DNA of 64,000 nt from Escherichia coli (GTDB lineage Bacteria > Pseudomonadota > Gammaproteobacteria > Enterobacterales > Enterobacteriaceae): assembly GCF_013122565.1 (NCBI RefSeq), contig NZ_CP053258.1; one strand, written 5' to 3'. Positions 1-21,132 of this stretch are shown here, piece after piece (position 1 is the stretch's first letter; the number at the start of each line of letters is the position of its first letter). The notes beneath the pieces were generated by a model. That model ran no database searches. It worked only from the letters and a program-made list of their open reading frames with translations, and was not told where the DNA came from. A program made the position numbers and the translations under genes.

Positions 1-199
1 GCAGCAATTGATTAATCAGGTCAACGAATACATAAACAGTAAGCAATGGCCTGGTAAAGCGGCGATTGGTCGCCTGAAAGGTGAGGAACTGGCGCAATAT
101 AATTTGTGGCTGGATTATCTGGACACACTGGAACTGGTCGATACTTCCGGTGCGCCAGATATTGAATGGCCTACGCCTCCGGCAGTTCAGGCCAGATGA
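1..199 (+). CDS. Tail fiber assembly protein, alternate copy, C-terminal fragment (5' end truncated by window edge; frame starts at position 2)
   Basis: Translation ...LAQYNLWLDYLDTLELVDTSGAPDIEWPTPPAVQAR matches conserved Tfa C-terminus; converges on and overlaps the minus-strand tfa at 171-764. Confidence 0.55.
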   Translation, partial: QQLINQVNEYINSKQWPGKAAIGRLKGEELAQYNLWLDYLDTLELVDTSGAPDIEWPTPPAVQAR

Positions 200-764
200 C
201 ATCCGGCGCAGTGCTGGTATCTGTTACCGTCACCGCGTCAATATAATCCAGCACGGCGTTAAGTCGGGTTGTTTCTGCCTGCGTCAGCTTCCGCCCGGCC
301 TGTAATTTCAGTTGAATCAGACTGATGGAAGCCATTGCAGCATCGATCAGCGACTGGCGCTGTGCTTCTGCCGCGTCTACTGCGGCACTATGCTGTGCCT
401 CAGTATCTGTCACCCATTTCTCACCATCCCATTTATCGTATGGCGTTAACGGTGAAAGCGTGACATAACCGTCTTTGATGGCACCGATATAATCCACTGT
501 AACAGCTGCGCCATTTTCTGTTGAGTAAACAGTCTCATTGCGATGGTCTTCTTCATGGCTCCATCCCTTACCCGTAAATACTGCCACTCTTCCCGGAATG
601 TATTCGCCCGGGTCAATACCAGTGGAACAGGCGGGCATACTTACGCCAGTATTAATATATTCATCAGACCAGCCAGTATATTCATACGTAACTGCCTCAT
701 AATAAAAACAACGCATATTACCAGGTACTGTAGCCAGCCCATTTTCATCAAAAACAGGTTTCAT
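171..764 (-). CDS. Tail fiber assembly protein (P2 gpG-like)
   Basis: 197 aa; conserved Tfa C-terminus ...VLDYIDAVTVTDTSTAPDVIWPELPEA; directly downstream of tail fiber gene with start/stop overlap. Confidence 0.85.
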   Translation of the reverse strand: MKPVFDENGLATVPGNMRCFYYEAVTYEYTGWSDEYINTGVSMPACSTGIDPGEYIPGRVAVFTGKGWSHEEDHRNETVYSTENGAAVTVDYIGAIKDGYVTLSPLTPYDKWDGEKWVTDTEAQHSAAVDAAEAQRQSLIDAAMASISLIQLKLQAGRKLTQAETTRLNAVLDYIDAVTVTDTSTAPDVIWPELPEA

Positions 765-2278
765 TATGCAGCCCTCACAATATAATTAAAGGCGATGTTA
801 CGTGGACGGTTTTCATTAGCTGTTGGCACGACACGAGAGGCGTCGAATCCAAGGTCATCGGTTTTGCCTATAGCAGTTGTGTTATTCGCCATTGTCGCTG
901 ATCGTGTTCCTGCATCGTAAAAAGCCCCTCTGATTGCATCAAAAGACATGCCGATCCCGCCATCTGCGAATCCCTCAATATTTCTTATTGCATCCCCCTG
1001 TGAAGATAATAATTGTCGCCCGGCATCCACTCCACGTCCGTCATCCCAGCCACGAATAAATTCACCGCGTAAATCAGGCAATTTATTTGTCGGATAAACC
1101 TTTGCCAGTTCCGGGTATTCTTCAGCAGAAAAAGCCGCACCATTGCATTTTAGCCAGCCTGTTGGCGGAGTGGCGGAAGGCCACGGGACAGGCACACCAA
1201 CGGGTAATGCCGAACCTTCTCCCAAACCAAGGTATGCGAGAAGACCAGCCACATCCTTTCCACTCAAATTGGTAAGCGTATTGTCCAGCGGTTGTTTACC
1301 TGCCAGCGCATTAAGCATTGTCGTGGCAAAGTTCGGATCATTCCCCAGTGCCGCCGCCAGTTCGTTCAGTGTATCCAGTGCCGCGGGTGCAGAACCCACC
1401 ATTGCTGCAATCGCTGATTTCACAAAAGCCGTAGTGGCAATCTGTGTATTGTTGACCGACTGCGCCGCCGTGGGGGCTGTTGGCGTTCCGGTGAGTGCCG
1501 GACTCGATAGCGGCGCTTTCAGTGCCAGCGCATTGTTAATGGTGGTACTGAATTTCGGATCATTGTTAATGGCTACAGCTATTTCTTTCAGCGTGTCCAG
1601 CGTGGCTGGCGCACCATTAATAAGAGCCGTCAGTGCCGCCTGAACAAACTCGGTGGTCGCAACCTGCGTGGTGTTATTCCCCGCCGCTGGCGTTGGCGCT
1701 TTGGGTGTCCCGGTAAACGTAGGACTTTCTTTCTGTGCATACTGTGAATGCGGGTCCGGTGCGGCAAGATGTTTTGCCATCTGATCATCTGCGTACACCT
1801 TCAGCTCCAGTACCTTATCATCCACATACTTGCGGGTTGCCAGCACTACGGCAGGGTCGATTTTCAGGGTGATATTGTCCGTGCTGCTGGTAATCAACAC
1901 CATACGCACGGTCTGGGTACGCCCGCTGCCTTCAGCCAGTTGCGGCTTATAACTTTCCGGGCAGTTGCCCACGGCAATCAATGCCCCGGACTCATCAAAC
2001 AGGCCCACTTCACGTATCCACCAACCGCCCTCGTTTTCAGGGATCACCTGTTCAGCAATAATCTGGCTGCTGTTCTGCGGGTCGATATAGAGCATATTCA
2101 GCGCAGCCCGGCGTTTCTCATTTACCAATGCTGTCTGCTTTGCGTCCGGCGTTGGCAATGTTCCACCGCCATCGCCGACCGCCATATGGGTAATTTTTAA
2201 AGGCACACCGAGCGCGGCGGCGCTGGCAAGGTTCGCCGCGCCAATATCCGTCAGCAGGGTATAAAATTTTGTGCTCAT
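764..2278 (-). CDS. Tail fiber protein (P2 gpH-like N-terminus, Mu S/P1 S-like C-terminal receptor-binding part)
   Basis: 504 aa; N-terminal MSTKFYTLL...MAVGDGGG and repeat block ...LNELAAALGNDPNFATTMLNALAGKQP typical of P2 H; ATGA overlap with upstream gpI. Confidence 0.9.
   Translation of the reverse strand: MSTKFYTLLTDIGAANLASAAALGVPLKITHMAVGDGGGTLPTPDAKQTALVNEKRRAALNMLYIDPQNSSQIIAEQVIPENEGGWWIREVGLFDESGALIAVGNCPESYKPQLAEGSGRTQTVRMVLITSSTDNITLKIDPAVVLATRKYVDDKVLELKVYADDQMAKHLAAPDPHSQYAQKESPTFTGTPKAPTPAAGNNTTQVATTEFVQAALTALINGAPATLDTLKEIAVAINNDPKFSTTINNALALKAPLSSPALTGTPTAPTAAQSVNNTQIATTAFVKSAIAAMVGSAPAALDTLNELAAALGNDPNFATTMLNALAGKQPLDNTLTNLSGKDVAGLLAYLGLGEGSALPVGVPVPWPSATPPTGWLKCNGAAFSAEEYPELAKVYPTNKLPDLRGEFIRGWDDGRGVDAGRQLLSSQGDAIRNIEGFADGGIGMSFDAIRGAFYDAGTRSATMANNTTAIGKTDDLGFDASRVVPTANENRPRNIAFNYIVRAA
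1217..1242. other. Candidate Din-family invertase crossover site (cix/gix/hix-like) inside tail fiber gene
   Basis: TTCTCCCAAACCAAGGTATGCGAGAA; left half matches the recalled consensus TTCTCnnAAACC with central AA, right half degenerate; lies at the constant/variable boundary of H. Confidence 0.3.
1289..1723. repeat. Internal tandem duplication (two units of about 216 bp, about 72 aa each) inside the tail fiber gene
   Basis: Protein units PTFTGTPKAPTPAAGNNTTQVATTEFVQAALTALINGAPATLDTLKEIAVAINNDPKFSTTINNALALKAPL and PALTGTPTAPTAAQSVNNTQIATTAFVKSAIAAMVGSAPAALDTLNELAAALGNDPNFATTMLNALAGKQPL; coordinates approximate. Confidence 0.7.
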
Positions 2279-2880
2279 GGATTCACTCTCATTGTGTCAA
2301 TAACATGGACCGCCCCACCTTCATGCGCGGTGCCGCCGGAAATAATTGTTTCGTTGATATACGGATAGATCGTGATTTCTTCGCCAAGATAGCTGGCGGC
2401 TCCCACCCAATGCGGGCCGCTGGTCTGCAGGTTGATGGACATGCCGATCATGTGACGGCTACATGGTTTGGCATCGCTTATCAGTCGCTCAAGTTCCAGA
2501 TAGGTATCTTCAGTGATGCCCTGGTCCTGCACGCCGATATCCAGACGAAACGTGCCCGGTGCCTCTCCGGTCTGCCACCACTCAATAATGCGGATCAGAA
2601 AACCGAACGGCTCCACCACCCGCCGCACGGCACTGGTGGTCCCTTTATGCTGATGAATATAAAAAGCATCCTTCACCACCTGGCGCTTGACGCTTTCTGT
2701 CCAGCCCTCGTCCCAGCGATCCACAGAGAACGCCCAGGCGAGATAAGGCAGGAAACTGATCGGACAGGTTGCCGGATTCCACAAGTCACGCAGCGGCACC
2801 TGCAGATCAGAAATCCCGCTACAGGTCTGCGCCAGTCGGCGCTCCAGTGAAGTTGAACCCGGTGGCAGCAGACTATTCAT
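2275..2880 (-). CDS. Baseplate/tail protein (P2 gpI-like)
   Basis: 201 aa; position and overlap pattern in J-I-H-G block. Confidence 0.8.
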   Translation of the reverse strand: MNSLLPPGSTSLERRLAQTCSGISDLQVPLRDLWNPATCPISFLPYLAWAFSVDRWDEGWTESVKRQVVKDAFYIHQHKGTTSAVRRVVEPFGFLIRIIEWWQTGEAPGTFRLDIGVQDQGITEDTYLELERLISDAKPCSRHMIGMSINLQTSGPHWVGAASYLGEEITIYPYINETIISGGTAHEGGAVHVIDTMRVNP

Positions 2881-3781
2881 CCGTTCCTCCGTTGGTCACG
2901 CTCCACTGCGTACATGATGCCGCCTGCGTTTTGTTCAGAACCACATCCGCCAGCGGAGAAGCCAGTTCCACACGTTGAACACCTTCAACATGCAGCGCGG
3001 CAAAAATAGCACTACGGCGAATATCCCGACCGAGCCGCGTCTGACTGGCGATGTACCTCTGCAGGCTGACTTTTGCCGCTGCCATTACCGGCTCTGCTTC
3101 CGGTCCCGGATAAAGAAAAATGGTGGCTTCCACACGGTACGGGATGATTTCTGCGCTGCGAACCGTCAGACGGTCAGCCACCGGGCGGACGTTCTCACTG
3201 TTCAGGGCTTTCTCCACCACGTCCAGTAAGTCTTTTTCTGCAGTTCCGTCGCCTTCGCGACTCAGGACAGTCAGCACCACCTCTGCAGGTGCCGGACTGG
3301 TTGCACTGGCATCCGCCACCCGACCGTCGGCGCTTCGGGCATGAAATTCATAAGCTGCAGTTGGCCCCGCAACTGAAAGTCCTTCAAAGGCTGCAGGCAC
3401 ACGCAGGCGTAACGCTTCATCACTTTCCATCACAGCCGCAACAGGCGGTACAGCGTCATCATCAGCAGGTGTCACCGTCAGGCGTTTCACGTTGTAGTTG
3501 GCAGCAATTTGGTCAAGGTCTCCGCCCATCGCGTAAGCCACCATCACCGCCTGCGCGGCTTCGTTAATGCGCTGGCGCAGAAGCAATTCACGGTAAGCGT
3601 TCTCCTGCAACAATTTGGTGACGGGTTCAGATTCAAGCTCCAGCGTACGCATCACTGCTTCCTGCTCATCTTTCGGATGAAGCGCCACAAATTCGGCCTT
3701 GCGTTCGGAAAGCAGCGTCTCAAAGTCCGGCACATCCACAATCTGCGGCGCAGGTAACTGCGAAAGGTCAATCACTGCCAT
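2873..3781 (-). CDS. Baseplate assembly protein (P2 gpJ-like)
   Basis: Start trimmed to MAVIDLSQLPAP... giving 302 aa as in P2 J; synteny. Confidence 0.85.
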   Translation of the reverse strand: MAVIDLSQLPAPQIVDVPDFETLLSERKAEFVALHPKDEQEAVMRTLELESEPVTKLLQENAYRELLLRQRINEAAQAVMVAYAMGGDLDQIAANYNVKRLTVTPADDDAVPPVAAVMESDEALRLRVPAAFEGLSVAGPTAAYEFHARSADGRVADASATSPAPAEVVLTVLSREGDGTAEKDLLDVVEKALNSENVRPVADRLTVRSAEIIPYRVEATIFLYPGPEAEPVMAAAKVSLQRYIASQTRLGRDIRRSAIFAALHVEGVQRVELASPLADVVLNKTQAASCTQWSVTNGGTDE

Positions 3782-4127
3782 TCTCTGCTCCTGTTGATAC
3801 GGAAAGGGAAACAGGCACACCGTTATTCCGCCGCCCGGTCAGCTCCACCACCATTGAACCGTCAAAATTGCTGTTGATGGTGATGGAATCCAGCGTCATC
3901 CTTGGCTCCCAGCGACTCAGCGCCACATACACTGCCGACATGACCTGCAGGTGTAATGCCGGATTTTGTGGCTGGTCTATCAGTGCCGACAGCAGGGAAC
4001 CATATTCCCGACGGGCAATGCGGCTACCCTGCGGCGTCAGCAAAATGTCCCGCACCGACTGGCGCAGATGGTCCGTGTCTGTAATAGTTTTTCCGTTGTT
4101 CTGACTCATGCCGATATACAGCGTCAT
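3768..4127 (-). CDS. Baseplate protein (P2 gpW-like)
   Basis: 119 aa; ...DILLTPQGSRIARREYGSLLSALIDQPQ... resembles gpW; ATGA overlap with V. Confidence 0.8.
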   Translation of the reverse strand: MTLYIGMSQNNGKTITDTDHLRQSVRDILLTPQGSRIARREYGSLLSALIDQPQNPALHLQVMSAVYVALSRWEPRMTLDSITINSNFDGSMVVELTGRRNNGVPVSLSVSTGAENGSD

Positions 4128-4702
4128 ACCGGGCCTCCGGTTGTATCGCCGCCTTTCAGGACGCCAGTATGCTGATGCGCATCAACCACGATCCCGTTAG
4201 AACTCATCGCTCCGCCGCCCTGGGTAACGCCACCATTGATCACAACTTCGCTGTTAATGCGCGTGCGGTCAGCCTCCAGTACAAACTCACTGGTTTTCAG
4301 GGTGATATTGTCAGCGGCCTCAATGACCATGGATTTGATGCCCCTGACATACCAGCGCCCGGTGGCGGGTTCGTATTCAAACCAGCCACCGTCTGGGTAC
4401 TCAACCACGTTGCCGTCCTCAGAGTCTGAAGGTGGTGGAAACTGATTTGAGTAGACAGCAGGCAGGGCAAACGCGGTTTCCAGATTGCCACCCAGGCTGA
4501 ACAGCACAACCTGCTCGCCCACAGACGGTTTCCACCAGGTGCGCGATTTGCCCGCGCGCAGTGTCAGCCAGTTAATCCAGTTGGTTTCGAGGTCGCCCGT
4601 TTTCACCCGACACAGCCAGTTTTCCCGGTCCACTTCGGTGACTACACCTGTGCGAATCAGATTGGTGATAAGGCGCATGATTTCGGTTAGTTGTGCATTC
4701 AT
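4124..4702 (-). CDS. Baseplate spike/assembly protein (P2 gpV-like)
   Basis: 192 aa; MNAQLTEIMRLITNLIRTGVV... aligns with P2 V N-terminus. Confidence 0.85.
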   Translation of the reverse strand: MNAQLTEIMRLITNLIRTGVVTEVDRENWLCRVKTGDLETNWINWLTLRAGKSRTWWKPSVGEQVVLFSLGGNLETAFALPAVYSNQFPPPSDSEDGNVVEYPDGGWFEYEPATGRWYVRGIKSMVIEAADNITLKTSEFVLEADRTRINSEVVINGGVTQGGGAMSSNGIVVDAHQHTGVLKGGDTTGGPV

Positions 4703-4750
4703 GTCGACGATATTTGCACAAACATATATTGTGGGACATTGAGTCAGAAA

Positions 4751-4768
4751 TGTATGACTTACTACACA
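4751..4768. promoter_or_regulatory. TGT-N12-ACA dyad (P2-type late promoter activator element) upstream of V
   Basis: tgtatgacttactacaca; P2 late promoters carry a TGT-N12-ACA dyad bound by Ogr-type activators. Confidence 0.3.
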
Positions 4769-4795
4769 ATGTTTATCCGCGCAAAGGAGTTACAG

Positions 4796-5701
4796 ATGAC
4801 ACAAATCGGTATCTATGGATATTGCTTCACGAAAGAATTTACTTTTAAAGGAGGGACACTGATACCTCGTTACAAATCCTTTAAGGAACTAAAAGAGAAT
4901 AAATGCGATGGAAGCGAATATGTATTAAGTGGATTTTTCTCTCCCGCACATGCTTCTGAAAACACCGTCACTCAAATAATTTATGATCTTTCAGCTGTTT
5001 TAAGTTTCATTGAACAAAAAAATGTAATCATATCAAACTTCCTAGAGGAACATGAAACACCTGAAAAGTTAGATAATAATTTCCCACTAAAATTGAAGTC
5101 AAAAAGAAAGTCATCACTAGGAATAATTGTTGAAGATTACTTCTCTGAAAAGAGTCGCTCAGCGTTCATTGAGCTTGCGATGGATAAACTTCATAGAAAT
5201 ATTAATTCTCATCAAAACCCTTTTAGAACTGCGTTCTATAAGTCTATATTTTCTTTTAGGGAAAGAATGGACTATGTAGATGTTAAATACTTCCTTAATT
5301 TCTCAGCATTAGAATCCCTGTGCAGATATATCGATAACGAGTCGACATCTAGTTATACACCACAAATAATTACAAAGGTTTTAAAAGATTATGGTTTTAA
5401 TGTATCTAAAGAAGGCAACCCTGTACCACAAAGAAACGTGATTCACTATTGCACGCTTCGAAACTCTCTATTCCACAATGGAAATTATATTGGATACATT
5501 AAGAAAGATGATCCAAGCAGTATCATTAAATTAAGTGATTATTATTCAAATCTAAATTTACTTTTACCTTTAGTATTAATGAAATATATAGGATTCGATG
5601 ATGGATTAATTAACTGGGACTCATGGATAGACTATGAACCATTTCTCGCCCTCAGGCCTAAAAACTTAACTCCATCGAATGGTAAACAATCAATTAGATA
5701 G
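4796..5701 (+). CDS. AT-rich cargo gene: hypothetical protein with Rx4H motif (HEPN-like, abortive-infection-like candidate)
   Basis: About 301 aa from MTQIGIYGYCF with AGGAG RBS upstream; low GC relative to flanks; antisense to the S-V tail operon; motif RNSLFH. Confidence 0.7.
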   Translation: MTQIGIYGYCFTKEFTFKGGTLIPRYKSFKELKENKCDGSEYVLSGFFSPAHASENTVTQIIYDLSAVLSFIEQKNVIISNFLEEHETPEKLDNNFPLKLKSKRKSSLGIIVEDYFSEKSRSAFIELAMDKLHRNINSHQNPFRTAFYKSIFSFRERMDYVDVKYFLNFSALESLCRYIDNESTSSYTPQIITKVLKDYGFNVSKEGNPVPQRNVIHYCTLRNSLFHNGNYIGYIKKDDPSSIIKLSDYYSNLNLLLPLVLMKYIGFDDGLINWDSWIDYEPFLALRPKNLTPSNGKQSIR

Positions 5702-6136
5702 CCAGCGCAATAATACATCGTGGGTTAAGGATTCTACGTCATCATTAATACCTAACAAACGACGCTCTGCGTAACGGACCTCCGGTCCTTTGCGACTAAC
5801 GCGATCACGCAGGCCGTAATGGTGAACACGGGCAATACGCTGCACCTTGCCTTCAAACTGTACGCTGGCAGAGTCGGCGCTGGCGGCAGTTTTCAGGTAT
5901 TTTGTGGTGCGCAGCTTTGCAAACATCTGACGTTTGATGCGCCCCTTCTTGCTACGTGCTGTTACCCTGCGCGGTTCATAACTGCTGCCATCTGGATTGC
6001 GCTGCATCCTGATATTCTGCTGCTGTGTCCGGCGCAGTTCCTGCGCCAGCTGGCGCATCATGCGGCTTCTCGTGGCTGGTTCCAGATTCGCCAGCAAGGC
6101 ACTCAGCCAGTCGTCCACCTTCTGCAGTTCAGCCAC
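5690..6136 (-). CDS. Tail completion protein (P2 gpS-like)
   Basis: 148 aa; synteny R-S-V. Confidence 0.85.
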   Translation of the reverse strand: MAELQKVDDWLSALLANLEPATRSRMMRQLAQELRRTQQQNIRMQRNPDGSSYEPRRVTARSKKGRIKRQMFAKLRTTKYLKTAASADSASVQFEGKVQRIARVHHYGLRDRVSRKGPEVRYAERRLLGINDDVESLTHDVLLRWLSN

Positions 6137-6581
6137 GTTTCACCGTCCACATTTCTTCAGGTGCATCAGGTTCCGCTACAGCTTCAACGCTCGACACACT
6201 GCCGTCAGTGCTGACCAGCACACGCTCCGTCAGTTGCAGGTTCAGGCTGATATCACAGACATCGTTGCGCAGAATATCCACCTCAAAGGTGAATAGCTTT
6301 TCCCGTAACGCCAGGTTATTGATAGCATCGGGCTGGTTATCCCTCAGCCACAGCAAAACCGGGGCCATCAGCAGATTCTGGTCGCCGCTGAAATCCTCAA
6401 TCACCACGTTCAGGGTGTAACGGTACTCCCATGACATGGAGCTGGCCCCCGTGGCAACCAGCGAACCGTTATCCACAAACAGATGCAGTTTGTCCGGGTT
6501 ATTGCGGACATAAGGCACCGCTTTATTGAGGGCGTGGCGCAGGGATTGTGGTTTGTTCACTGTTTCGCTCCTGACACGCAA
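6129..6581 (-). CDS. Tail completion protein (P2 gpR-like)
   Basis: 150 aa; synteny. Confidence 0.85.
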   Translation of the reverse strand: MRVRSETVNKPQSLRHALNKAVPYVRNNPDKLHLFVDNGSLVATGASSMSWEYRYTLNVVIEDFSGDQNLLMAPVLLWLRDNQPDAINNLALREKLFTFEVDILRNDVCDISLNLQLTERVLVSTDGSVSSVEAVAEPDAPEEMWTVKRG

Positions 6582-6813
6582 TAATCATGTCCACTTTGTC
6601 TGCACAGACCGCCCAGGCGGCCTCCGTTTCATCCAGCAACGCGTTCAGATTACCGTTAGTGCGCGGCGTTGCCTGATCCAGCCGACACGGCGTCACTCGC
6701 GGACAACCACTGACGGTAAGCTGCACCTCCGGTGAGTGTCGGACGTTCCCGCAGCCGGATAATGTCAGCAGGCAAAGGAGTATCAGCCCAGCGGCGTAAA
6801 TCCTCGTTCTCAC
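6523..6813 (-). CDS. Outer-membrane spanin lipoprotein (P2 LysC / Rz1-like), overlapping lysB and R out of frame
   Basis: 96 aa; lipobox LTLSGC in MRTRIYAAGLILLCLLTLSGCG; Pro-rich. Confidence 0.7.
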   Translation of the reverse strand: MRTRIYAAGLILLCLLTLSGCGNVRHSPEVQLTVSGCPRVTPCRLDQATPRTNGNLNALLDETEAAWAVCADKVDMIIACQERNSEQTTIPAPRPQ

Positions 6814-7084
6814 GTTTCAGTTCCTCAATCCGATGTTGTCGTTGTCTCAGCAGTGCACTGGTCTGTTCTGCTTCGGCGTAGAGCCGCGCCTGCTCCCGGT
6901 TGTTGGTTTCAGCCAGAATGGACAGACTGATCAGCTGGCTATTTTTCTTCGTTAGTTCGTGCGCTTTACTTTTCAGCGCCGCGCGCTGCGTTTCGATGGT
7001 ATGGCTGGCGCTGTTAAGCCGCCACGACTGCCAGCCCAGCGCAACGAGTGCCAGCGCCGCCACTACCGCCAGCGCACGTGTCAT
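6656..7084 (-). CDS. Inner-membrane spanin (P2 LysB / Rz-like)
   Basis: 142 aa; N-terminal TM segment then coiled-coil rich in R/E/Q. Confidence 0.8.
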   Translation of the reverse strand: MTRALAVVAALALVALGWQSWRLNSASHTIETQRAALKSKAHELTKKNSQLISLSILAETNNREQARLYAEAEQTSALLRQRQHRIEELKRENEDLRRWADTPLPADIIRLRERPTLTGGAAYRQWLSASDAVSAGSGNAAH

Positions 7085-7596
7085 AGTCCAGCTCCTTTAA
7101 GGCACCAGGCCATCTCCCGCGCACGGCGGTTATCCAGCCCCTGATTAAACACACCTTTTACATACACCCAGCGCGGCAACTGTCGGCACGCATCCGCCCA
7201 GCGCCGCTGATTGAGCAATTTCACCAGCGTGGAACTACAGGCATTGCCCGTCCCCACGTTGAAGGCAAACGACACCGTAGCGTCATACACCTTCTGCGGT
7301 GGCTGTTGCTTCACACACCTTTCCAGCGCCCGCTCCACACGCAGCACGTTGGAGATCAGCCCTTCTGCTGCCTGTCGCTCCGTGATTGTTTTGCCGGGAA
7401 TGACGCCCGATGTATTACCAATGCCGTCGGTCCAGACACCCGCGCTGCACTGATACGGCTGCAGACGACAGCCTTCGTAATCGGCGATCAGTTTCAGTCC
7501 CTCCACGGAGGTGTGAAGCTGCTGAAAACCCGGCAGCGTGGCAGCAATAGCCAGCACAGCCCCGACAAGGCAGCGTTTAACGATTGATGGATTCAT
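7081..7596 (-). CDS. SAR-type endolysin (T4-lysozyme/GH24-like, resembles phage 21 R)
   Basis: 171 aa; N-terminal hydrophobic CLVGAVLAIAATL then EGLKLIADYEGCRL...WTDGIGNT catalytic region. Confidence 0.85.
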   Translation of the reverse strand: MNPSIVKRCLVGAVLAIAATLPGFQQLHTSVEGLKLIADYEGCRLQPYQCSAGVWTDGIGNTSGVIPGKTITERQAAEGLISNVLRVERALERCVKQQPPQKVYDATVSFAFNVGTGNACSSTLVKLLNQRRWADACRQLPRWVYVKGVFNQGLDNRRAREMAWCLKGAGL

Positions 7597-7792
7597 AGTC
7601 CTCCCGCGAGATCTGCCCGTCGCGCAGAAGCTGGTAGGCTTTGTGTTTGTAGTACCAGTTGATAGCCAGCATCAGCACACCGATCATCAGGCCGCCCAGC
7701 GTTGAGGCATCCTTGATGGACAAATCACCCAGCCAGGCCAGCACAACGGCGATGCAATACGTGATAAAGGCGCTGATTCGCTCAAGCGTCAT
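7577..7792 (-). CDS. Holin (small two-TM, pinholin-like)
   Basis: 71 aa with two hydrophobic segments and charged C-terminus; immediately upstream of endolysin. Confidence 0.65.
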   Translation of the reverse strand: MTLERISAFITYCIAVVLAWLGDLSIKDASTLGGLMIGVLMLAINWYYKHKAYQLLRDGQISREDYESINR

Positions 7793-7795
7793 AAT

Positions 7796-7999
7796 TCAGT
7801 CCCATAGCTGGACGGTCTGCACGGTGGTGGTGGTCGGAATGTCCGGCAGCTCCACCTGCAGCCCGTGAGGTAAAAAGGGGCCAAATTCGGCAAGCCCCGG
7901 ATTTGCCTTCAGTACCTGCTCCGTGACACCCTGCGTGCGCCCGTAATGACGCCAGCAAAGCGCGTCCACCGTGTCATACTGATGCGCACGCACTTTCAT
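7796..7999 (-). CDS. Tail protein X (P2 gpX-like)
   Basis: 67 aa, same length and position as P2 X. Confidence 0.7.
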   Translation of the reverse strand: MKVRAHQYDTVDALCWRHYGRTQGVTEQVLKANPGLAEFGPFLPHGLQVELPDIPTTTTVQTVQLWD

Positions 8000-8526
8000 C
8001 AGATAAGCTCCACTGTGCAGTGCGGCGCATCCTGTACCCGGCAGATGGCCCAGCGGGCGTCACGCCACAAATCACCGCTGGCTTCTGCCAGTTCCTCGCC
8101 CCGCTTCACACCGGATGCCGTGGCGTCATAGTCCTGGTAACGTTCGTTGAGCATGGCGCGAGCCCAGCAGTAAACCGCGTTGAAATAGTGCTGAATTCGC
8201 TCGCTTTTCCCGTCCAGCTGTTCCGCCGGAACCTCTGCCAGCGAGGCATATCCCAGCATCTGCTGGCGTCTGCGAAACTCATACAGCTCTGCGTTGACCT
8301 CCGAAATTGCCGACAGCGCAACCTGCTTTAAACGCGGCTGCGTCACCGTGCCGTCAGTGCGCATCACACTGCGAAACTCCGACAGGTCCACATCAGGCCA
8401 GAACGGCGTATTTCTGATGATTTCCGCCTGTTCCGGTGCCTGTTCTGGCGCAACAAACTTCATGCTGCTTTCTCCTGAAATAGAGGGCGGTGGACGGGGT
8501 TTTGATGTGGCAGTGCCTTTCGCCAC
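7999..8526 (-). CDS. Capsid completion protein (P2 gpL-like)
   Basis: 175 aa; C-terminal ...DLWRDARWAICRVQDAPHCTVELI resembles gpL. Confidence 0.8.
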   Translation of the reverse strand: MAKGTATSKPRPPPSISGESSMKFVAPEQAPEQAEIIRNTPFWPDVDLSEFRSVMRTDGTVTQPRLKQVALSAISEVNAELYEFRRRQQMLGYASLAEVPAEQLDGKSERIQHYFNAVYCWARAMLNERYQDYDATASGVKRGEELAEASGDLWRDARWAICRVQDAPHCTVELI

Positions 8527-8558
8527 CCCGTGCCGCCCGTGCGCGGGGGCACGTTCTG

Positions 8559-9209
8559 TCAGCGGCTGTCATTGCGCAGTCTGCGCTCCAGCTGCTGTTT
8601 GTCTTTTTTCACGCCACAGCGGGGATCGAGCTGTAACGCATGGTTGAGATGATTAAGGGCGGAAGCCGGATTGCTTTCACTCAGGACAGCGCCAATCGCT
8701 TTATGCAGACGCGCCCGTGACTGGTCCGGCATATCCAGACCGTCTGTCAGCTCCAGCGTCTGCAGCAACAGATCGGCATCAAAGCCGGTGGCGGCAAGCA
8801 TTGCGCTCTGCGCGGCGTCTGCCATTTCCTCTGCCAGCACGGTCTGCACGTTGCGGTTACCCAGCGGCATCACCCAGCCATGACGCAGGGCATGACGCCC
8901 GATCTCCAGCGCCCCGGCATAATCTCCGGCATCAATACGCCACAGCATCACGTACATCAGCACGTCATCCTGTTGAGCGCCTCCGGCAGCCAGGACACCC
9001 TCTGCCCAGGCGGCGTACTTCGGCAGCAGCTCCACCTTGATTTCCGCTTTTTTGACCGTGGACTGAACGCCCTTGAGACGGCGGCGGTCTTCCGCCAGTT
9101 GCAGCAGCATCAGGTCATAGCCCGATGCGTGGCGAACACTGCCGCCCTCGCGGGCGGCCTGTTCAGCCTGAACGCGCAGGCGATGCTGCCGTGCGGGACT
9201 CAGGCTCAT
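8559..9209 (-). CDS. Terminase small (endonuclease) subunit (P2 gpM-like)
   Basis: 216 aa; synteny between N and L. Confidence 0.8.
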   Translation of the reverse strand: MSLSPARQHRLRVQAEQAAREGGSVRHASGYDLMLLQLAEDRRRLKGVQSTVKKAEIKVELLPKYAAWAEGVLAAGGAQQDDVLMYVMLWRIDAGDYAGALEIGRHALRHGWVMPLGNRNVQTVLAEEMADAAQSAMLAATGFDADLLLQTLELTDGLDMPDQSRARLHKAIGAVLSESNPASALNHLNHALQLDPRCGVKKDKQQLERRLRNDSR

Positions 9210-9212
9210 GGA

Positions 9213-10271
9213 TTACGCTCCGGTTTCGGCTGCGGCGGCGCTGAAATCACCAATCTGGATATTTTCCACCAGTGCGGCGCAGCGGTAGTCCTCAACCACA
9301 TAGGCTTCGTTAACGGATTCAAAGTTTTCAATCCGGTCACGTTTCGGGTTGTCGATAACTGAACGGCGGCGGGTGTCTTCCTGCCAGTAGATGGACAGGT
9401 TATCCAGACGGGTGATCAGCAGCGCATTCGGCGGGAAGAACGGCGCACGCACGGCCTGCAGGCCACCCATGCGTTTCTGACTGATGATCATATCGGCAGC
9501 CAGTTTTTCACTGTTTTCCTGCTCTTTGTTGACCAGCGGGAAATACTTGTCAGACAGCAGTTCACGACCGCAAATCACCACCAGATCGTCATCGTCCTGG
9601 TAGACCACGTCGATAAGCTCATTGACGGCATCCATCACCACGGCGTCCAGGTTGGCATATTCGCCACCTTTCCCGACTTTCACTGCGCCCGGTGTGGTTT
9701 CACCGCCCGTGGTGGTGCTGCCCATGACGTGATCCGGTGCATCCTCACGGATTTTCTGCAGCCAGCCTTTATTCACATCCTGCAGTAGCGGGTTTTCGCT
9801 ACGGTTGGAGGTTTTCGCACGCTTCACGCCGTTAAAGCCGATCATGATGCGGTCCAGTGCCTGACGTTTCACGATGGCGTCACGGATACGCACCTGAAAA
9901 TCCTGAAACTTCGCCCACAGGTCCAGCTTCGCGTAGGTCAGCACCGTGTCAAAGTTGGTCTGCTCGCATTTATATTCCACATCGACCATCAGCGTCGGAT
10001 CGACAGGTTCACGCTCTTTCGCGGTGGTATCAGTGGTTCCGGCAATGGTGCTGCCAACTCCCAGCCCCAGCAGCTGACCGGACTGCTCAGTCACTGGCGT
10101 GACGTTAATCAGCGTCAGGAAAGCGGCGGACTGCTGGATCTGGTCTTCCAGCGTCTGCTGCACAGACGGCTCCACGGTGAATTTGCTGGACAGTTCTTCA
10201 ACTGCCACACCGTTCAGACGCGCCAGCTGCTGCAGGTAAGCGTTAAAAGCAAAGCGGGTATTCTTCTTCAT
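9213..10271 (-). CDS. Major capsid protein (P2 gpN-like)
   Basis: 352 aa; synteny O-N-M. Confidence 0.9.
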   Translation of the reverse strand: MKKNTRFAFNAYLQQLARLNGVAVEELSSKFTVEPSVQQTLEDQIQQSAAFLTLINVTPVTEQSGQLLGLGVGSTIAGTTDTTAKEREPVDPTLMVDVEYKCEQTNFDTVLTYAKLDLWAKFQDFQVRIRDAIVKRQALDRIMIGFNGVKRAKTSNRSENPLLQDVNKGWLQKIREDAPDHVMGSTTTGGETTPGAVKVGKGGEYANLDAVVMDAVNELIDVVYQDDDDLVVICGRELLSDKYFPLVNKEQENSEKLAADMIISQKRMGGLQAVRAPFFPPNALLITRLDNLSIYWQEDTRRRSVIDNPKRDRIENFESVNEAYVVEDYRCAALVENIQIGDFSAAAAETGA

Positions 10272-10287
10272 CGGGTTTTGTGCTCCA

Positions 10288-11121
10288 TCAGCAATTGGTC
10301 AGAGTGTCAGCGGGGGCGTTACCGCCTGTTGCACGCTGGCGGTAGTCCTGGCGGCTGTCTTCATGACTTAGCTTGTCCACCAGTTCGTTAAAGGCGGTCA
10401 GCTGTGCCTGCAGGGCAGTCTCCAGCTCAGACAGGCGTTCTTCCTGCTCAGACAGGGATTTTTCGGTGCGTGCGCTCAGGTTCTGCTGCTCAGTGGCGAC
10501 CAGCTCCACGGCCTTATGCACATCAGAGAACCGGGCGTCATCGGACTGCTCTTTTTTGGTAAACAGCGCCGTGACGCGGGCAAACAGGGACGGTTTGTCG
10601 TCTTGGATTTCTTCCAGTTCGATCACCGTTTCCTCTGCAGCGGTAAAGAGATTGGCAGGATTCTGCTTGCGGTTTGCCAGCGGGTTATGGGCTGCACTGG
10701 CGCTGAATGTCAGCATTTCCGTACCCAGACTGGCAGGGTCATCAGTGGCAGCCAGGCCGACCAGGTAGGCTTTGCCCGTATCAGCGAACTTCGGGCTGAC
10801 TTCCATAGAGGTGAATAATTTCTGGCCTTTTTTCACCAGTTCCACCAGGGACTCCGTTGGCTCAACGTCGGCATACAGCGCCATCTTGCCTGCCAGCGGA
10901 CCTTCCGTGATTTCTTCAGCAAACAGCGCCGTCACCTTGCCGTAGCGGTTAAAGGTGCTGTCCGGCAGATAAGACTTGATGTGCTCAAGGTTAATCAGCG
11001 CGGTATACACCGCCGGGTTGTAGCTGGCTGCCATCTGTTCCAGCCATTCACGCTGGATTTCGCGTCCGTCGGTGGTGGCACCTTCCACCCCGATGCGAAA
11101 ACGCTTTGCTTTCACTGTCAT
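10288..11121 (-). CDS. Capsid scaffolding protein (P2 gpO-like)
   Basis: 277 aa; acidic/coiled-coil C-terminal part; divergent from P. Confidence 0.85.
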   Translation of the reverse strand: MTVKAKRFRIGVEGATTDGREIQREWLEQMAASYNPAVYTALINLEHIKSYLPDSTFNRYGKVTALFAEEITEGPLAGKMALYADVEPTESLVELVKKGQKLFTSMEVSPKFADTGKAYLVGLAATDDPASLGTEMLTFSASAAHNPLANRKQNPANLFTAAEETVIELEEIQDDKPSLFARVTALFTKKEQSDDARFSDVHKAVELVATEQQNLSARTEKSLSEQEERLSELETALQAQLTAFNELVDKLSHEDSRQDYRQRATGGNAPADTLTNC

Positions 11122-11263: not shown

Positions 11264-13030
11264 ATGAACACCACACTGACACCCGCAGATCTCGATCCCC
11301 GTCGGCAGGCCATGCTGCTGTACTTTCAGGGATACCGCGTAGCCCGCATTGCTGAAATGCTGGGCGAGAAAGTTGCAACCGTTCACAGCTGGAAAAAACG
11401 CGACAAGTGGGGTGACTATGGGCCGCTGGATCAGATGCAGCTCACCACCGCCGCACGCTACTGCCAGCTCATCATGAAGGAGCACAAAGAAGGGAAAGAT
11501 TTCAAAGAGATTGACCTGCTGGCGCGCCAGTCTGAGCGCCACGCGCGGATCGGCAAGTTTAACAATGGCGGCAACGAATCCGACTTAAACCCTAACGTCG
11601 CCAACCGCAACAAAGGCCCACGCCGTCAGCCGGAAAAGAATGTTTTCACCGATGAGCAGATTGAGAAGCTGGAAGAAATCTTCCATTCCTCCATGTTCAA
11701 CTACCAGCGCCACTGGTGGGAAGCCGGAAAAACCAACCGCATCCGCAACCTGCTGAAGTCACGCCAGATCGGCGCGACCTTTTACTTTGCCCGTGAAGCC
11801 CTGATTGACGCCCTGCTGACCGGACGTAACCAGATTTTCCTTTCCGCCAGCAAGGCACAGGCCCACGTCTTTAAGCAGTACATCATCGACTTCGCCAAAG
11901 AAGTGGAGGTGGAGTTGAAAGGCGATCCGATGGTGCTTCCTAACGGGGCCACGCTTTACTTCCTCGGCACCAATGCCCGCACGGCCCAGAGTTATCACGG
12001 CAACCTGTATCTGGATGAATATTTCTGGATACCGAAATTCCAGGAGCTGCGCAAAGTGGCTTCCGGTATGGCTATTCACAAGAAATGGCGACAAACCTAT
12101 TTTTCCACGCCATCCAGCCTGACACACAGTGCTTATCCGTTCTGGTCCGGTGCGCTATTCAACCGTGGGCGCAACAAAGCCGATAAGGTGGACATCGACC
12201 TGTCCCACAGCAATCTGGCCCCCGGCCTGCTGTGCGCAGACGGGCAATACCGCCAGATTGTCACCGTGGAAGATGCAGTGCGCGGCGGATGTAACCTGTT
12301 CGACCTCGATCAGTTACGCATGGAGTACAGCCCGGACGAATACCAGAACCTGCTGATGTGCGAGTTTGTGGACGATCTCGCGTCTGTGTTCCCACTCAGC
12401 GAGCTGCAGGCGTGCATGGTGGACAGCTGGGAAGTCTGGACCGACTTTCATGCACTGGCACTGCGCCCATTTGGCTGGCGCGAAGTGTGGATCGGTTATG
12501 ACCCGGCGAAAGGTACGCAGAACGGCGACAGTGCCGGATGCGTGGTGGTGGCACCGCCAGCCGTGCCGGGCGGCAAGTTCCGCATTCTTGAGCGTTACCA
12601 GTGGCGCGGGATGGACTTTCGCGCCCAGGCTGACGCCATCAAAAAACTGACCGAACAGTACAACGTGACCTATATCGGCATCGACTCAACCGGCGTTGGT
12701 CACGGGGTTTATGAGAACGTGAAAGCGTTCTTTCCTGCCGTCCGGGAGTTTGTCTACAACCCCAACGTTAAAAACGCCCTGGTACTCAAGGCCTACGACA
12801 TTATCAGCCACCGCCGTCTGGAGTTTGACGCCGGGCACACCGACATTGCGCAGTCATTCATGGCAATCCGTCGCGCCACCACCGCCAGTGGCAACCGCCC
12901 GACCTATGAAGCCAGCCGCAGCGAAGAAGCCAGCCACGCCGATCTGGCCTGGGCAACGATGCACGCACTGTTTAACGAACCGCTGCAGGGCGAATCCGCC
13001 AATACCAGCAATATTGTGGAGATTTTTTGA
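11264..13030 (+). CDS. Terminase large (ATPase) subunit (P2 gpP-like)
   Basis: 588 aa; divergent from O as in P2. Confidence 0.9.
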   Translation: MNTTLTPADLDPRRQAMLLYFQGYRVARIAEMLGEKVATVHSWKKRDKWGDYGPLDQMQLTTAARYCQLIMKEHKEGKDFKEIDLLARQSERHARIGKFNNGGNESDLNPNVANRNKGPRRQPEKNVFTDEQIEKLEEIFHSSMFNYQRHWWEAGKTNRIRNLLKSRQIGATFYFAREALIDALLTGRNQIFLSASKAQAHVFKQYIIDFAKEVEVELKGDPMVLPNGATLYFLGTNARTAQSYHGNLYLDEYFWIPKFQELRKVASGMAIHKKWRQTYFSTPSSLTHSAYPFWSGALFNRGRNKADKVDIDLSHSNLAPGLLCADGQYRQIVTVEDAVRGGCNLFDLDQLRMEYSPDEYQNLLMCEFVDDLASVFPLSELQACMVDSWEVWTDFHALALRPFGWREVWIGYDPAKGTQNGDSAGCVVVAPPAVPGGKFRILERYQWRGMDFRAQADAIKKLTEQYNVTYIGIDSTGVGHGVYENVKAFFPAVREFVYNPNVKNALVLKAYDIISHRRLEFDAGHTDIAQSFMAIRRATTASGNRPTYEASRSEEASHADLAWATMHALFNEPLQGESANTSNIVEIF

Positions 13031-14064
13031 TGGGAAAGAGTAAGAAGAACCGAGCTGCGGCGACGAAACAGATCCAGCTTAAAAGTCAAACTACAGCCGA
13101 AGCATTCAGCTTCGGCGATCCCGTTCCTGTTCTGGACCGCCGAGAATTACTGGACTATGTGGAATGCGTACAGATGGACCGTTGGTATGAGCCGCCCGTC
13201 AGCTTTGACGGACTGGCGCGCACCTTCCGCGCTGCAGTGCATCACAGTTCCCCGATTGCAGTAAAGTGCAACATTCTGACCAGTACCTACATCCCTCACC
13301 CGCTGCTCAGCCAGCAGGCTTTTTCACGTTTTGTGCAGGACTATCTGGTATTTGGTAACGCCTACCTGGAGAAACGCACGAACCGATTCGGTGAAGTTAT
13401 CGCCCTTGAGCCTGTGCTGGCAAAATACACCCGACGCGGGTTAGACCTGGATACCTACTGGTTTGTGCAATACGGCATGACTACACAGCCGTATCAGTTC
13501 ACGAAAGGCAGCATTTTTCACCTGATGGAACCGGATATCAACCAAGAGATCTACGGCCTGCCCGGTTATCTTTCTGCCATTCCGTCAGCCCTGCTCAACG
13601 AGTCCGCCACGCTGTTCCGCCGCAAGTATTACATTAACGGCAGCCACGCAGGCTTCATCATGTACATGACCGACGCCGCGCAGAACCAGGAGGATGTAAA
13701 CAACCTCCGTAACGCGATGAAAAGCGCCAAAGGACCAGGCAACTTCCGTAACCTGTTTATGTACTCGCCGAACGGCAAAAAGGACGGGCTTCAGATCATC
13801 CCATTGTCTGAAGTCGCGGCAAAGGATGAGTTTCTGAATATCAAAAATGTTAGTCGCGATGACATGATGGCGGCACACCGCGTGCCGCCGCAAATGATGG
13901 GGATTATGCCTAATAATGTTGGGGGGTTTGGGGATGTGGAGAAAGCGAGTATGGTATTTGTGAGGAATGAATTAATTCCTCTACAAAGGCGTTTAGAAGA
14001 GCTTAATTTGTGGCTAGAAGAGGAAGCCATAAAATTCAAACCATACAATTTATCAGATAATTAG
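13027..14064 (+). CDS. Portal protein (P2 gpQ-like)
   Basis: 345 aa; ATGA overlap with P. Confidence 0.9.
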   Translation: MMGKSKKNRAAATKQIQLKSQTTAEAFSFGDPVPVLDRRELLDYVECVQMDRWYEPPVSFDGLARTFRAAVHHSSPIAVKCNILTSTYIPHPLLSQQAFSRFVQDYLVFGNAYLEKRTNRFGEVIALEPVLAKYTRRGLDLDTYWFVQYGMTTQPYQFTKGSIFHLMEPDINQEIYGLPGYLSAIPSALLNESATLFRRKYYINGSHAGFIMYMTDAAQNQEDVNNLRNAMKSAKGPGNFRNLFMYSPNGKKDGLQIIPLSEVAAKDEFLNIKNVSRDDMMAAHRVPPQMMGIMPNNVGGFGDVEKASMVFVRNELIPLQRRLEELNLWLEEEAIKFKPYNLSDN

Positions 14065-20054: not shown

Positions 20055-20908
20055 GCACGCACTCCGTACATGGCAGAACTATCCACGCCACGCGAAGGAT
20101 CAAATCCCACCCAGCAGCGCGCCCCGGAAACAGCAATGATTTCTGTTGCAGATTTACTCTCGCCAGCCGACACGCCGATGCTGCGTTTTGCCTTGATGTA
20201 GTGGTGAGTGAAATTGCGATACAGCGAACGAATCAGGGATGTGTCACTGTTAGAAACAATGACCGGATGTCCTTCAGATGCTCGATGTTCAAGAACGGAT
20301 GCCAGGTGATACTGGTCATCTTCAGTGAAACCATCAGTGTGATAGCCGGAAAACGTACCGTCATACGGCGGATCGCAATACACCACATCCCCCGCCTTCA
20401 ACATCGCCAGCGTTTCATCAAAGCTGGCGCAGATAAACGTTGCCCGCTGGGCTTTTTCTGCAAATGCGCGAATTTCTTTTTCAGGGAAATACGGATTTTT
20501 ATAATTACCGTAGGGAATGTTGAAATGCCCGCTCTTGTTATAGCGACATAAACCACGGTAACCGTGACGATTGAGATACAGGAAATATACCGCTTTCATG
20601 AAATCAGTAATTTCAGTGGAGTAATTAAACTCCTGCCTTATGTTGTAATAAGCCACCTCCCTGTTTGCGATCTCAAATAAAACTCTGGCGCGAGATATAA
20701 ACGATTCACAATCAGCGGCAACCTTTTTATAGAGGTTGATTAAATCAAGATTAATATCCGCAACCAGATAGCTTGGATAATCCGTCTCCATCATCACAGC
20801 ACAGGAACCCGCGAAAGGTTCAACCAGTCGCGGGCCAGCAGGAAGGTGTTTTTTCAGTTCGGACATAATTGCGGTTTTATTTCCCGCCCATTTCAGGATG
20901 GTGCTCAT
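20051..20908 (-). CDS. DNA adenine methyltransferase (Dam family, orphan)
   Basis: Start trimmed to [11 protein letters not shown]; motif I-like FAGSCAV and motif IV DPPY (VYCDPPYDG). Confidence 0.85.
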
Positions 20909-21132
20909 ACAGCACCTCCGTTGTAATGTTTGCCTTTCAGCTCTGCGATTTCCTGACAGGTAATGCAAAGCTGCACTCCCGGAATGGCGCGGCGTCGTGC
21001 TGGCGGAATTGGCGCTTCACATTCAATGCAAAGTACGCGTGACACGCCCGGTGATTTGGCACGGGCTGCACGGATATGGCGCTGGCGTTCTTCTTCAACG
21101 CGCTGCTGTACGAGATCCATTGCATCAGCCAT
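20905..21132 (-). CDS. DksA/TraR-family C4 zinc-finger protein
   Basis: 75 aa; CIECEAPIPPARRRAIPGVQLCITCQ (CxxC-N17-CxxC). Confidence 0.75.
   Translation of the reverse strand: MADAMDLVQQRVEEERQRHIRAARAKSPGVSRVLCIECEAPIPPARRRAIPGVQLCITCQEIAELKGKHYNGGAV

Follow-up and report, generated by a model that had tools for sequence, protein, structure and literature searches.

Does the tail fibre encoded at the start of this stretch of Escherichia coli DNA have a single, fixed tip, or is the tip one setting of a switch that can be turned by DNA inversion? The whole stretch that was analysed, called the window here, is 64,000 nucleotides long. It opens with the end of one tail-fibre assembly gene running into another on the opposite strand, followed by a tail-fibre gene, H, with a putative recombination site inside it (Table 1). 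We put the probability at a little under nine in ten that the left edge of the window falls within an invertible segment, belonging to a P2-like prophage, that carries tail-fibre genes and acts as a switch of the Pin/Cin/Gin type. A preliminary description of the window had already suggested an invertible tail-fibre switch, and this reading is now supported by a close relative in which the same DNA is inverted with its breakpoint in the site, and by a partner site and an invertase in related prophages.

Table 1. Features of the tail-fibre locus at the start of the window, including those predicted to lie upstream of it
Feature	Position	Strand	Remarks
tfa' 3' end (65 codons + stop)	1..199	+	alternate tail-fibre assembly chaperone; gene start upstream of window
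tfa	171..764	-	197 aa; tail-fibre assembly chaperone; expressed position, directly 3' of H
H, tail-fibre gene	764..2278	-	504 aa; constant part fused to currently selected variable tip
Hc, constant part of H (~residues 1-350)	1231..2278	-	outside invertible segment
Hv, variable C-terminal tip of H (~residues 351-504, Collar-domain type)	764..1228	-	within invertible segment
Crossover site, 26 bp, pix/cix/gix type	1217..1242	.	central AA 1229-1230; inside H
In-window share of ~1.83-kb invertible segment	1..1230	.	remaining ~0.6 kb predicted upstream of position 1
Partner site, predicted from L006 offset	~590-615 bp upstream of window position 1		expected close to TTTTCATAAACGTTGGTTTGGGAGAA
Invertase gene, predicted from L006 offset	~0.67-1.24 kb upstream of window position 1		

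The plus-strand gene at the left edge of the window, tfa', is undamaged as far as it can be read. Its frame is open from position 2, with no stop or frameshift, and ends ...WLDYLDTLELVDTSGAPDIEWPTPPAVQAR* at 199; the encoded fragment equals, residue for residue, the C-terminus of the 146-aa Tfa' of a near-clonal relative, L006. The preliminary description had recognised a Tfa C-terminus in this frame and allowed that it might be a decayed remnant with stops. It belongs to a second tfa gene, whose 3' end is intact, and the product matches phrog_188 (tail fiber assembly) at 2.6e-62. The Tfa encoded on the minus strand matches phrog_105 (2.1e-83), PF02413 (Caudo_TAP) is matched by both tfa products, and an exact-protein look-up finds the 197-aa Tfa in identical form in P2-like and Mu-like prophages; against Mu U its BLASTP match is marginal (E=0.026). 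The convergence of the two genes, also described earlier, is confirmed, with a 29-bp overlap at 171-199.

The tail-fibre protein itself is composite. Pfam places Phage_tail_fib at residues 1-150 of H and Collar at 361-408, residues 1-332 are 53% identical to H of P2, and Hc is common to both forms in which H occurs, one of 504 aa and one of 468 aa. Hv is 97% identical to the tip (the C-terminus) of a 251-aa fibre protein of the Mu-like prophage L005, in a match that begins at the LGLGE motif. H had been described as a P2-like N-terminus joined to a Mu S-like C-terminus, of which the first half holds. The second, taken in its strict sense, was rejected because BLASTP similarity to Mu S and Mu S' is non-significant (E=0.66 for H against Mu S, E=2.3 for the tip against Mu S').

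The two parts of H meet at TTCTCCCAAACCAAGGTATGCGAGAA, a 26-bp near-palindrome at 1217-1242 whose half-sites, TTCTCCCAAACC and TTCTCGCATACC, are identical at 10 of 12 positions and flank a central AA. The common skeleton of gix and cix sites, TTCNNNNAAACCNNGGTNTNNGANAA, which was derived from the annotated Mu gix and P1 cix sites, matches here (0 mismatches on the plus strand, 1 on the minus strand) at a chance expectation of 0.00 from 100 shuffles, and the skeleton search of the 64-kb window returned no further crossover site. The site spans codons 346-354 of H (LLAYLGLGE), so that the placement at the constant/variable junction given in the preliminary description stands. Its likeness to Din-type crossover sites had been confined to the left half; that half does fit, but so does the whole site. 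Reading frame and peptide motif at the site agree across systems, with NLGLQE in Mu S, YLGLRE in P1 S and YLGLGE here. The site is identical at 23 of 26 positions to e14 pix, at 21 of 26 to cixR and at 17 of 26 to gix. Its inner half and central dinucleotide, CCTTCTCCCAAACCAA (window 1215-1230), are identical to the inverted repeat of the e14 P segment as read directly from MG1655, and a P-segment inverted repeat with CCTTCTCCCAAACCAA has been published (PMC12529663).

Evidence for inversion comes from L006, in which 10.4 kb show 5 mismatches to the window. From 1216 to 10457 the two are collinear (99.968% identity, 3 mismatches in 9,242 bp), whereas window 1-1233 corresponds to L006 10764-9532 in inverted orientation (99.838%). 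The inversion breakpoint therefore lies at window 1216-1233, within the 26-bp site. L006 extends further, and its gene order is an invertase (188 aa), the partner site, a fibre tip with tfa, and then tfa' with the fibre tip that is fused to constant H. Its crossover sites lie at 9523-9548 and 11354-11379 in inverted relative orientation, as do those of a second relative, L001 (7386-7411 and 9217-9242). In both pairs the core is AA/TT and the inner half-sites are identical, and the invertase-proximal site of L006 is identical at 26 of 26 positions to the pinE-proximal pix site of e14. Since L006 is this close to the window, has an intact invertase and shows the opposite orientation, the inversion must be very recent in the lineage.

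Other relatives agree with this picture. The same layout occurs in L001, L002, L003, L004, L007 and L010, and a Pin-like invertase lies next to the segment in every relative examined. L001 and L006 both carry the second set in full, made up of the 146-aa Tfa' and a tip of gp53-like type; the two tips differ in domain (Collar versus Gp53-like_C). Among complete E. coli genomes the best match to the window is 96.8% identical. The 504-aa H gave no hit when looked up as an exact protein, nor did a 42-mer across the junction in the window orientation when matched exactly against genome_contigs; the exact look-up of the 197-aa Tfa is what led to L006. Some copies of the locus are altered: L003 (CFSAN051542) has an IS1 inserted between the two tfa genes, in the segment, and L002 (strain H3) has several genes whose annotation marks them as frameshifted. 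Judging from these relatives, the source genome of the window probably also carries the invertase, and the partner site and alternate fibre tip would likewise be expected there, just outside the window.

Both settings of the switch are found in nature, and both keep H in frame. The preliminary description had named a single orientation in reads as an outcome that would speak against a switch; in assembled DNA both were found, in the window versus L006 and in ERP001, one E. coli assembly in which the same locus is present in both orientations. In the ERP001 record the ends overlap by ~25.9 kb and were left untrimmed, and its two copies are therefore one locus assembled twice. L004 is a flipped L001 (99.86% identity over 8,053 bp), and complete E. 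coli genomes include ~28 with the window orientation and 30 with the flipped junction. Flipping L001 in silico yields an in-frame H of 468 aa, and a natural 468-aa H is present in L006. A Logan contig of 1,817 bp (L012) has both of its ends exactly at the central dinucleotides of the two inverted sites.

It is nevertheless conceivable that the locus is a frozen remnant, in which the upstream invertase or the partner site has been lost or inactivated and the orientation has become fixed. That such damage happens is seen in the relatives with IS1 in the segment (L003) or with genes annotated as frameshifted (L002). Yet the tfa' reading frame in the window is free of stops and frameshifts and agrees with Tfa' of L006 in every residue, and L006, at 5 mismatches in 10.4 kb, combines an intact 188-aa invertase with the opposite orientation. 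Even a locus without its own enzyme might be served in trans by invertases of the same family in the same cell, as Pin, Gin, Cin and Hin complement one another (PMC12529663). We therefore regard a frozen locus as improbable.

A second possibility is that the site-like sequence marks only a mosaic junction, left when phages once swapped fibre tips by homologous or illegitimate recombination, without site-specific inversion. Phage homology does begin or end at the site, as expected of a module boundary: H50 covers 1-1230, H52-H60 cover 1217-2300, and L005 and L009 stop at 1241. The sequence coding for LGLGE is, moreover, conserved among fibre genes. A junction of this kind would not account for identical DNA in both orientations with the breakpoint within the 26-bp site, nor for an inverted partner site with the same central dinucleotide and an adjacent Pin-like invertase in every relative examined, and we give this explanation very little credence. 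The roles of the site as module boundary and as point of inversion are mutually compatible. Equally slight is the chance of a multi-site shufflon that would use at least three crossover sites to offer more than two tips, of the kind known from Min of plasmid p15B or from the three-repeat, four-variant locus of the P2-like prophage of EPEC E2348/69 (PMC4272514), given that a relaxed search (up to 3 mismatches) of the 20.6-kb L006 locus returned its two known sites and no third, that the 64-kb window has one, and that the L006 segment holds exactly two tip-plus-chaperone sets.

An inversion switch with two sites thus remains the preferred reading, and the following mechanism can be proposed for it. 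The prophage sits next to rcdA, and its ogr/ybjL end lies outside the window on the upstream side. Shortly before the window, in the interval that separates the segment from the tail-sheath gene, there would be a gene for a serine invertase of the Pin/Cin/Gin family; this interval is the position of the Z/fun hotspot of P2. This enzyme is predicted to recombine two inverted 26-bp sites, one inside H and the other beside the invertase gene. Inversion of the ~1.83 kb between them would exchange the last ~154 codons of H, together with tfa, for an alternate tip of ~118 codons together with tfa'; Tfa' would be the chaperone specific to this tip, whose C-terminal domain is of gp53-like type. In the orientation of the window, the Collar-type tip and the 197-aa Tfa would occupy the expressed position, and tfa' (1-199) and its tip would be silent. 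Expression from the late operon is presumably limited to the copy joined to Hc, and the two tips, given their different domains, may confer different host ranges.

The enzyme that would drive the switch is best seen in L006. Its 188-aa invertase matches the Gin structure 3uj3 (E=1e-91), keeps the Ser9 motif YVRVSTNDQ, has the Pfam domains Resolvase and HTH_7, and matches phrog_125 (DNA invertase). Its identity is highest with PinE (85%), followed by Cin (77%) and Gin (73%). By analogy with Gin, Cin and Hin, inversion may depend on Fis and an enhancer. In P1 the enhancer is annotated at cin nt 19-90, and the equivalent stretch of the L006 invertase gene agrees with P1 at only 56 of 72 positions and with Mu at 52 of 72; because it is coding sequence, this conservation is no proof of Fis binding. 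Promoter and terminator scans of the L006 switch gave counts near the shuffle expectation. In window 1-30000 an Rfam scan found no family at threshold, and no retron msr/msd or other RNA.

The nearest known system is the P segment of e14 with its invertase Pin, in E. coli K-12 (stfP-tfaP / tfaE-stfE, pinE and pix sites). The preliminary description had compared the locus with the G segment of Mu and the C segment of P1; the convergent chaperone genes of U/U' type bear this out, but the closest relative is the e14 segment and not Mu G. Like the window, e14 has two sets of tip and chaperone genes that converge, with the tfa genes sharing 29 bp (4518-4546 in L017, the e14 record; 171-199 in the window). 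The segments are of similar size (1,797 bp in e14, ~1,831 bp here), and DNA identity reaches 87-90% over parts of them. Tfa is 64% identical to TfaE, with the last ~80 residues nearly identical, and Tfa' is 55% identical to TfaP. There are also clear differences. The host element here is a complete-looking P2-like prophage whereas e14 is defective, the constant part of the fibre is like H of P2, the fibre tips are different for most of their length, and the H-side site departs from that of e14 at 3 of 26 positions, in its outer half.

With Mu G/Gin and P1 C/Cin the locus shares sites of 26 bp, one of them within the fibre gene, and a serine invertase beside the segment. At 1.8 kb the segment is shorter, however, than those of Mu (~3.1 kb) and P1 (~4.3 kb), going by the annotated boundaries. 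The U and U' genes of Mu do not overlap, and no similarity to Mu S or S' could be detected for the fibre tip here.

The prophage itself belongs with P2. Late genes follow the P2 order V-W-J-I-H-G, and H carries the Phage_tail_fib domain; window ORFs 2275-4702 are collinear, at ~95%, with the phage tail protein I, baseplate assembly, GPW/gp25 and baseplate V genes of L001. The P2 families found by Pfam in L006 are Tail_P2_I, Phage_base_V, P2_Phage_GpR, Phage_cap_P2, Phage_GPD and Ogr_Delta. P2 differs from the prophage studied here in having no invertase, second tip/chaperone set or crossover site at this place. As in other P2-like prophage loci, the switch lies between the tail-fibre genes H and G and the tail-sheath gene FI, where P2 itself has Z/fun, a hotspot that commonly carries a DNA invertase (bioRxiv 10.1101/2024.10.15.618418). 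A Din-type switch in this setting is ordinary, and such switches in P2-like prophages have already been published. Phase-variable inversions in EPEC prophages of P2-like type were confirmed by PCR (PMC4272514), and the size of the published inversion, ~1.8 kb, matches the one here, although the E2348/69 locus has three repeats where two sites are found here. Fin of Fels-2 is cited in PMC12529663 as a further P2-like invertible tail-fibre locus.

The locus adds a further example to a classic type of host-range switch, and beyond correct annotation it has little significance in itself; dozens of E. coli genomes already have these genes annotated in RefSeq. Whether the switch matters to the lysogen is a more speculative point. 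The invertase-proximal site equals one of the e14 pix sites at all 26 positions and the enzyme shares 85% identity with PinE, so the prophage enzyme could flip e14-type segments elsewhere in the chromosome, or the reverse. Either of the two tips, were it expressed in the lysogen, could also block the adsorption of other phages, an effect that has been reported for PinQ and StfE2 (PMC12529663). We consider such a role for the switch a long shot.

For the reading of phage genomes the consequences are more immediate. Short-read assemblies tend to break at segments of this kind or to give them an arbitrary orientation, and the fibre gene taken from any single assembly shows one of the two receptor-binding tips that the phage can make. 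The 26-bp site is in addition a point at which P2-like and Mu-like phages trade modules for the fibre tip, and this bears on the prediction and engineering of host range.

Three ORFs occupy positions 1-2278 of the window: the end of an alternate chaperone gene (tfa'), the chaperone gene tfa, and the tail-fibre gene H. As the preliminary description had it, the two chaperone genes converge and share 29 bp (171-199). Both belong to tail-fibre-assembly families, the 197-aa Tfa matching phrog_105 (2.1e-83) and a full-length relative of the plus-strand fragment matching phrog_188 (2.6e-62), with Pfam Caudo_TAP matched by both. Pfam assigns residues 1-150 of the 504-aa H to Phage_tail_fib and residues 361-408 to Collar, and residues 1-332 share 53% identity with P2 H.

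A crossover site had been proposed inside H from the resemblance of its left half to Din-invertase sites, and both of its half-sites in fact fit. A search skeleton, TTCNNNNAAACCNNGGTNTNNGANAA, built solely from the annotated boundaries of the Mu G segment and the cixL and cixR features of P1, matches the window nowhere else (0 mismatches on one strand, 1 on the other; shuffle expectation 0.00). The site is a 12-2-12 near-palindrome with central AA, its half-sites identical to each other at 10/12 positions, and it shares 23/26 positions with the stfP-side pix of the e14 P segment, 21/26 with cixR and 17/26 with the Mu site gix. The inverted repeat printed for the P segment is exactly the 16-mer CCTTCTCCCAAACCAA at window positions 1215-1230 (PMC12529663). 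The site covers H codons 346-354 (LLAYLGLGE), and the same reading frame runs through the sites elsewhere, as NLGLQE in Mu S and YLGLRE in P1 S.

Features of the window and, in their order along the contig, of the tail-fibre locus of the near-clonal prophage contig L006
Feature	Coordinates	Strand	Remarks
tfa' 3' end	..199	+	frame open from position 2, reads QQLINQVNEYINSKQWPGKAAIGRLKGEELAQYNLWLDYLDTLELVDTSGAPDIEWPTPPAVQAR and stop
tfa, 197 aa	171-764	-	ORF; phrog_105 and Caudo_TAP
H, 504 aa	764-2278	-	ORF; P2 H-type tail fibre
Crossover site TTCTCCCAAACCAAGGTATGCGAGAA	1217-1242		inside H
336-aa ORF	4691-5701	+	opposite-strand insertion in the late genes, between V (4124-4702) and S (5690-6136)
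Retron Ec67-family reverse transcriptase/Toprim endonuclease, 586 aa	14109-15869	-	NCBIfam NF038237, 685.9 bits (cutoff 450); PADLOC RT-Toprim_I-C, 6e-213
Dam-family adenine methyltransferase gene	20051-20968	-	TIGR00571, 321.6 bits; early region of prophage
PADLOC candidate defence family PD-Lambda-1 match, 558 aa	23672-25348	+	3e-120
Integrase	25431-26486		prophage extends up to here
L006, 1-2: tail sheath gene, then serine recombinase gene		-	recombinase 188 aa (strand given for it)
L006, 3: partner site TTTTCATAAACGTTGGTTTGGGAGAA	9523-9548
L006, 4: Collar-type tip and 197-aa Tfa		+
L006, 5: 146-aa Tfa' and gp53-like tip		-	tip fused to constant H, 468-aa H
L006, 6: crossover site	11354-11379		same sequence as in the window

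Both orientations occur in near-identical DNA. L006 (GCA_021121335.1), one of several contigs with an exact match to the window's Tfa protein, is collinear with window positions 1216-10457 (99.968%, 3 mismatches) and inverted over 1-1233 (99.838%), so that the breakpoint falls at 1216-1233, within the proposed crossover site. The annotated layout is the same in two complete E. coli genomes, ERP001 (L001) and H3 (L002), which are 96-97% identical to the window, and a Pin-like invertase and partner site are present in all relatives examined. Projected from L006, the expected place of the partner site is about 590-615 bp upstream of window position 1 and that of the invertase about 0.67-1.24 kb upstream; the source genome would still carry both. 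In a related, degraded P2-like prophage of E. coli CFSAN051542 (L003), an IS1A element (2372-3069) splits the invertible segment between its convergent tfa genes.

An in-silico inversion of L001 at its two site cores yields an in-frame 468-aa H, and the constant part of H is fused in frame both ways. The flipped junction is found at 100% identity within the same ERP001 record (NZ_CP063214.1), where the part denoted L004 is 99.86% identical to flipped L001 over 8,053 bp, all differences being gaps. This record opens partway through the prophage repressor region and closes within the tail-tube gene, and its first ~25.9 kb (1-25,9xx) are repeated by its last ~25.9 kb (4,964,5xx-4,990,420; L018, L019). 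The duplicated stretch is most of the P2-like prophage, with many frameshift-type indels in one copy, and the two copies carry the invertible segment in opposite orientations. It appears that the ends of a circular assembly overlap in this 'complete' record and were left untrimmed; if so, the two copies are the same physical locus, built from different reads with the segment facing opposite ways. Among complete E. coli genomes, the window orientation is present in about 28 (at least 80% of the 2.3-kb query) and the flipped junction in 30.

The Logan short-read contig L012 (SRR35898320; 1,817 bp), which starts TTGGTTTGGGAGAA and ends TTCCCCCAAACCAA, is exactly one invertible segment ending at the central dinucleotides of both sites. 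Such ends are as expected of a de Bruijn graph with both junctions among the reads, and since the contig is bounded by the site cores, assemblies break at the switch. A second contig, L011 (SRR35097130; 1,837 bp), likewise consists of the invertible segment alone; in these variants the second inner half-site is TTCCCCCAAACC in place of TTCTCCCAAACC.

The L006 recombinase matches the Gin structure 3uj3 over residues 1-183 (E=1e-91), keeps the catalytic-serine motif YVRVSTNDQ, and is 85% identical to PinE, 77% to Cin and 73% to Gin. The pinE-proximal pix of e14 is identical at 26/26 positions to the invertase-proximal site of L006, the P-segment DNA is 87-90% identical over parts of the invertible segment, and the overlap of tfaP and tfaE is 29 bp, as for the window's chaperone genes. 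The e14 P segment with Pin is therefore the nearest known system, with Mu G/Gin and P1 C/Cin as remoter members of the same family.

The C-terminal part of H had been described as Mu S-like, a reading that we reject in the strict sense, as it shows no significant similarity to Mu S (E=0.66) or Mu S' (E=2.3). From the LGLGE motif on, the tip is instead 97% identical to that of a 251-aa fibre protein in the Mu-like prophage L005, and phage SKA5 (L020), L008 and L009 also have this cassette, with an invertase, following baseplate genes of Mu type. Window homology to such elements ends at 1230-1241, and P2-like phages whose tips differ become homologous from 1217 on, so the crossover site is also the boundary of tip-module exchange. 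In L005, L008, L009 and SKA5 the exact 197-aa Tfa, together with a tip cassette that is 97-99% identical, follows homologues of Mu gp45-gp48; L008 and SKA5 have a more distant invertase (51% identity for the L008 protein). This points to a recent exchange of the whole cassette between Mu-like and P2-like phages, with the crossover site as border.

Downstream of H, the ORFs are collinear, at ~95%, with the L001 genes annotated as P2 baseplate I, J, W and V. A TetR-family regulator gene, at the position of rcdA, adjoins the integrase end, and a 4-kb gsiA/gsiB stretch with up to 99.0% identity to E. coli genomes places the host in Escherichia. Beside the retron gene, which sits at the P2 old/tin hotspot, are two ORFs (11264-13030 and 13027-14064) that collinearity with L001 and L006 puts in the places of terminase and portal; a search for Rfam RNA families nearby found none, and msr/msd were not located. 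The PD-Lambda-1 gene is flanked by the integrase and by a 198-aa ORF (23055-23651) in the place of the repressor, an interval that is a third cargo hotspot in P2-like prophages. The 336-aa ORF has no match in NCBIfam or PADLOC, and relatives differ in their cargo at this V/S position: L006 has a 301-aa protein without Pfam match, L002 a DUF6216 protein, and L001 nothing. The Dam-family gene adjoins an 804-aa ORF (17640-20054) at the position of the ERP001 replication endonuclease gene.

Inversion switches in P2-like prophages have already been published, and the switch proposed in the preliminary description, correctly read, is an ordinary and known system. Two inversion loci, one of ~1.8 kb, were confirmed by PCR in P2-like prophages of EPEC E2348/69 (PMC4272514), and Fels-2 Fin is cited as a P2-like prophage inversion switch in PMC12529663. 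The position between G and FI is occupied by Z/fun in P2 itself, and a DNA invertase with inverted neighbour genes has been described as frequent at the Z/fun hotspot (bioRxiv 10.1101/2024.10.15.618418). Inversion would depend on Fis together with an enhancer near the 5' end of the invertase gene. The L006 counterpart of the annotated P1 enhancer is identical to it at 56/72 positions, but this stretch is itself coding sequence. Late-operon expression would be limited to the tip and chaperone joined to the constant part of H, and the two tips may confer different host ranges.
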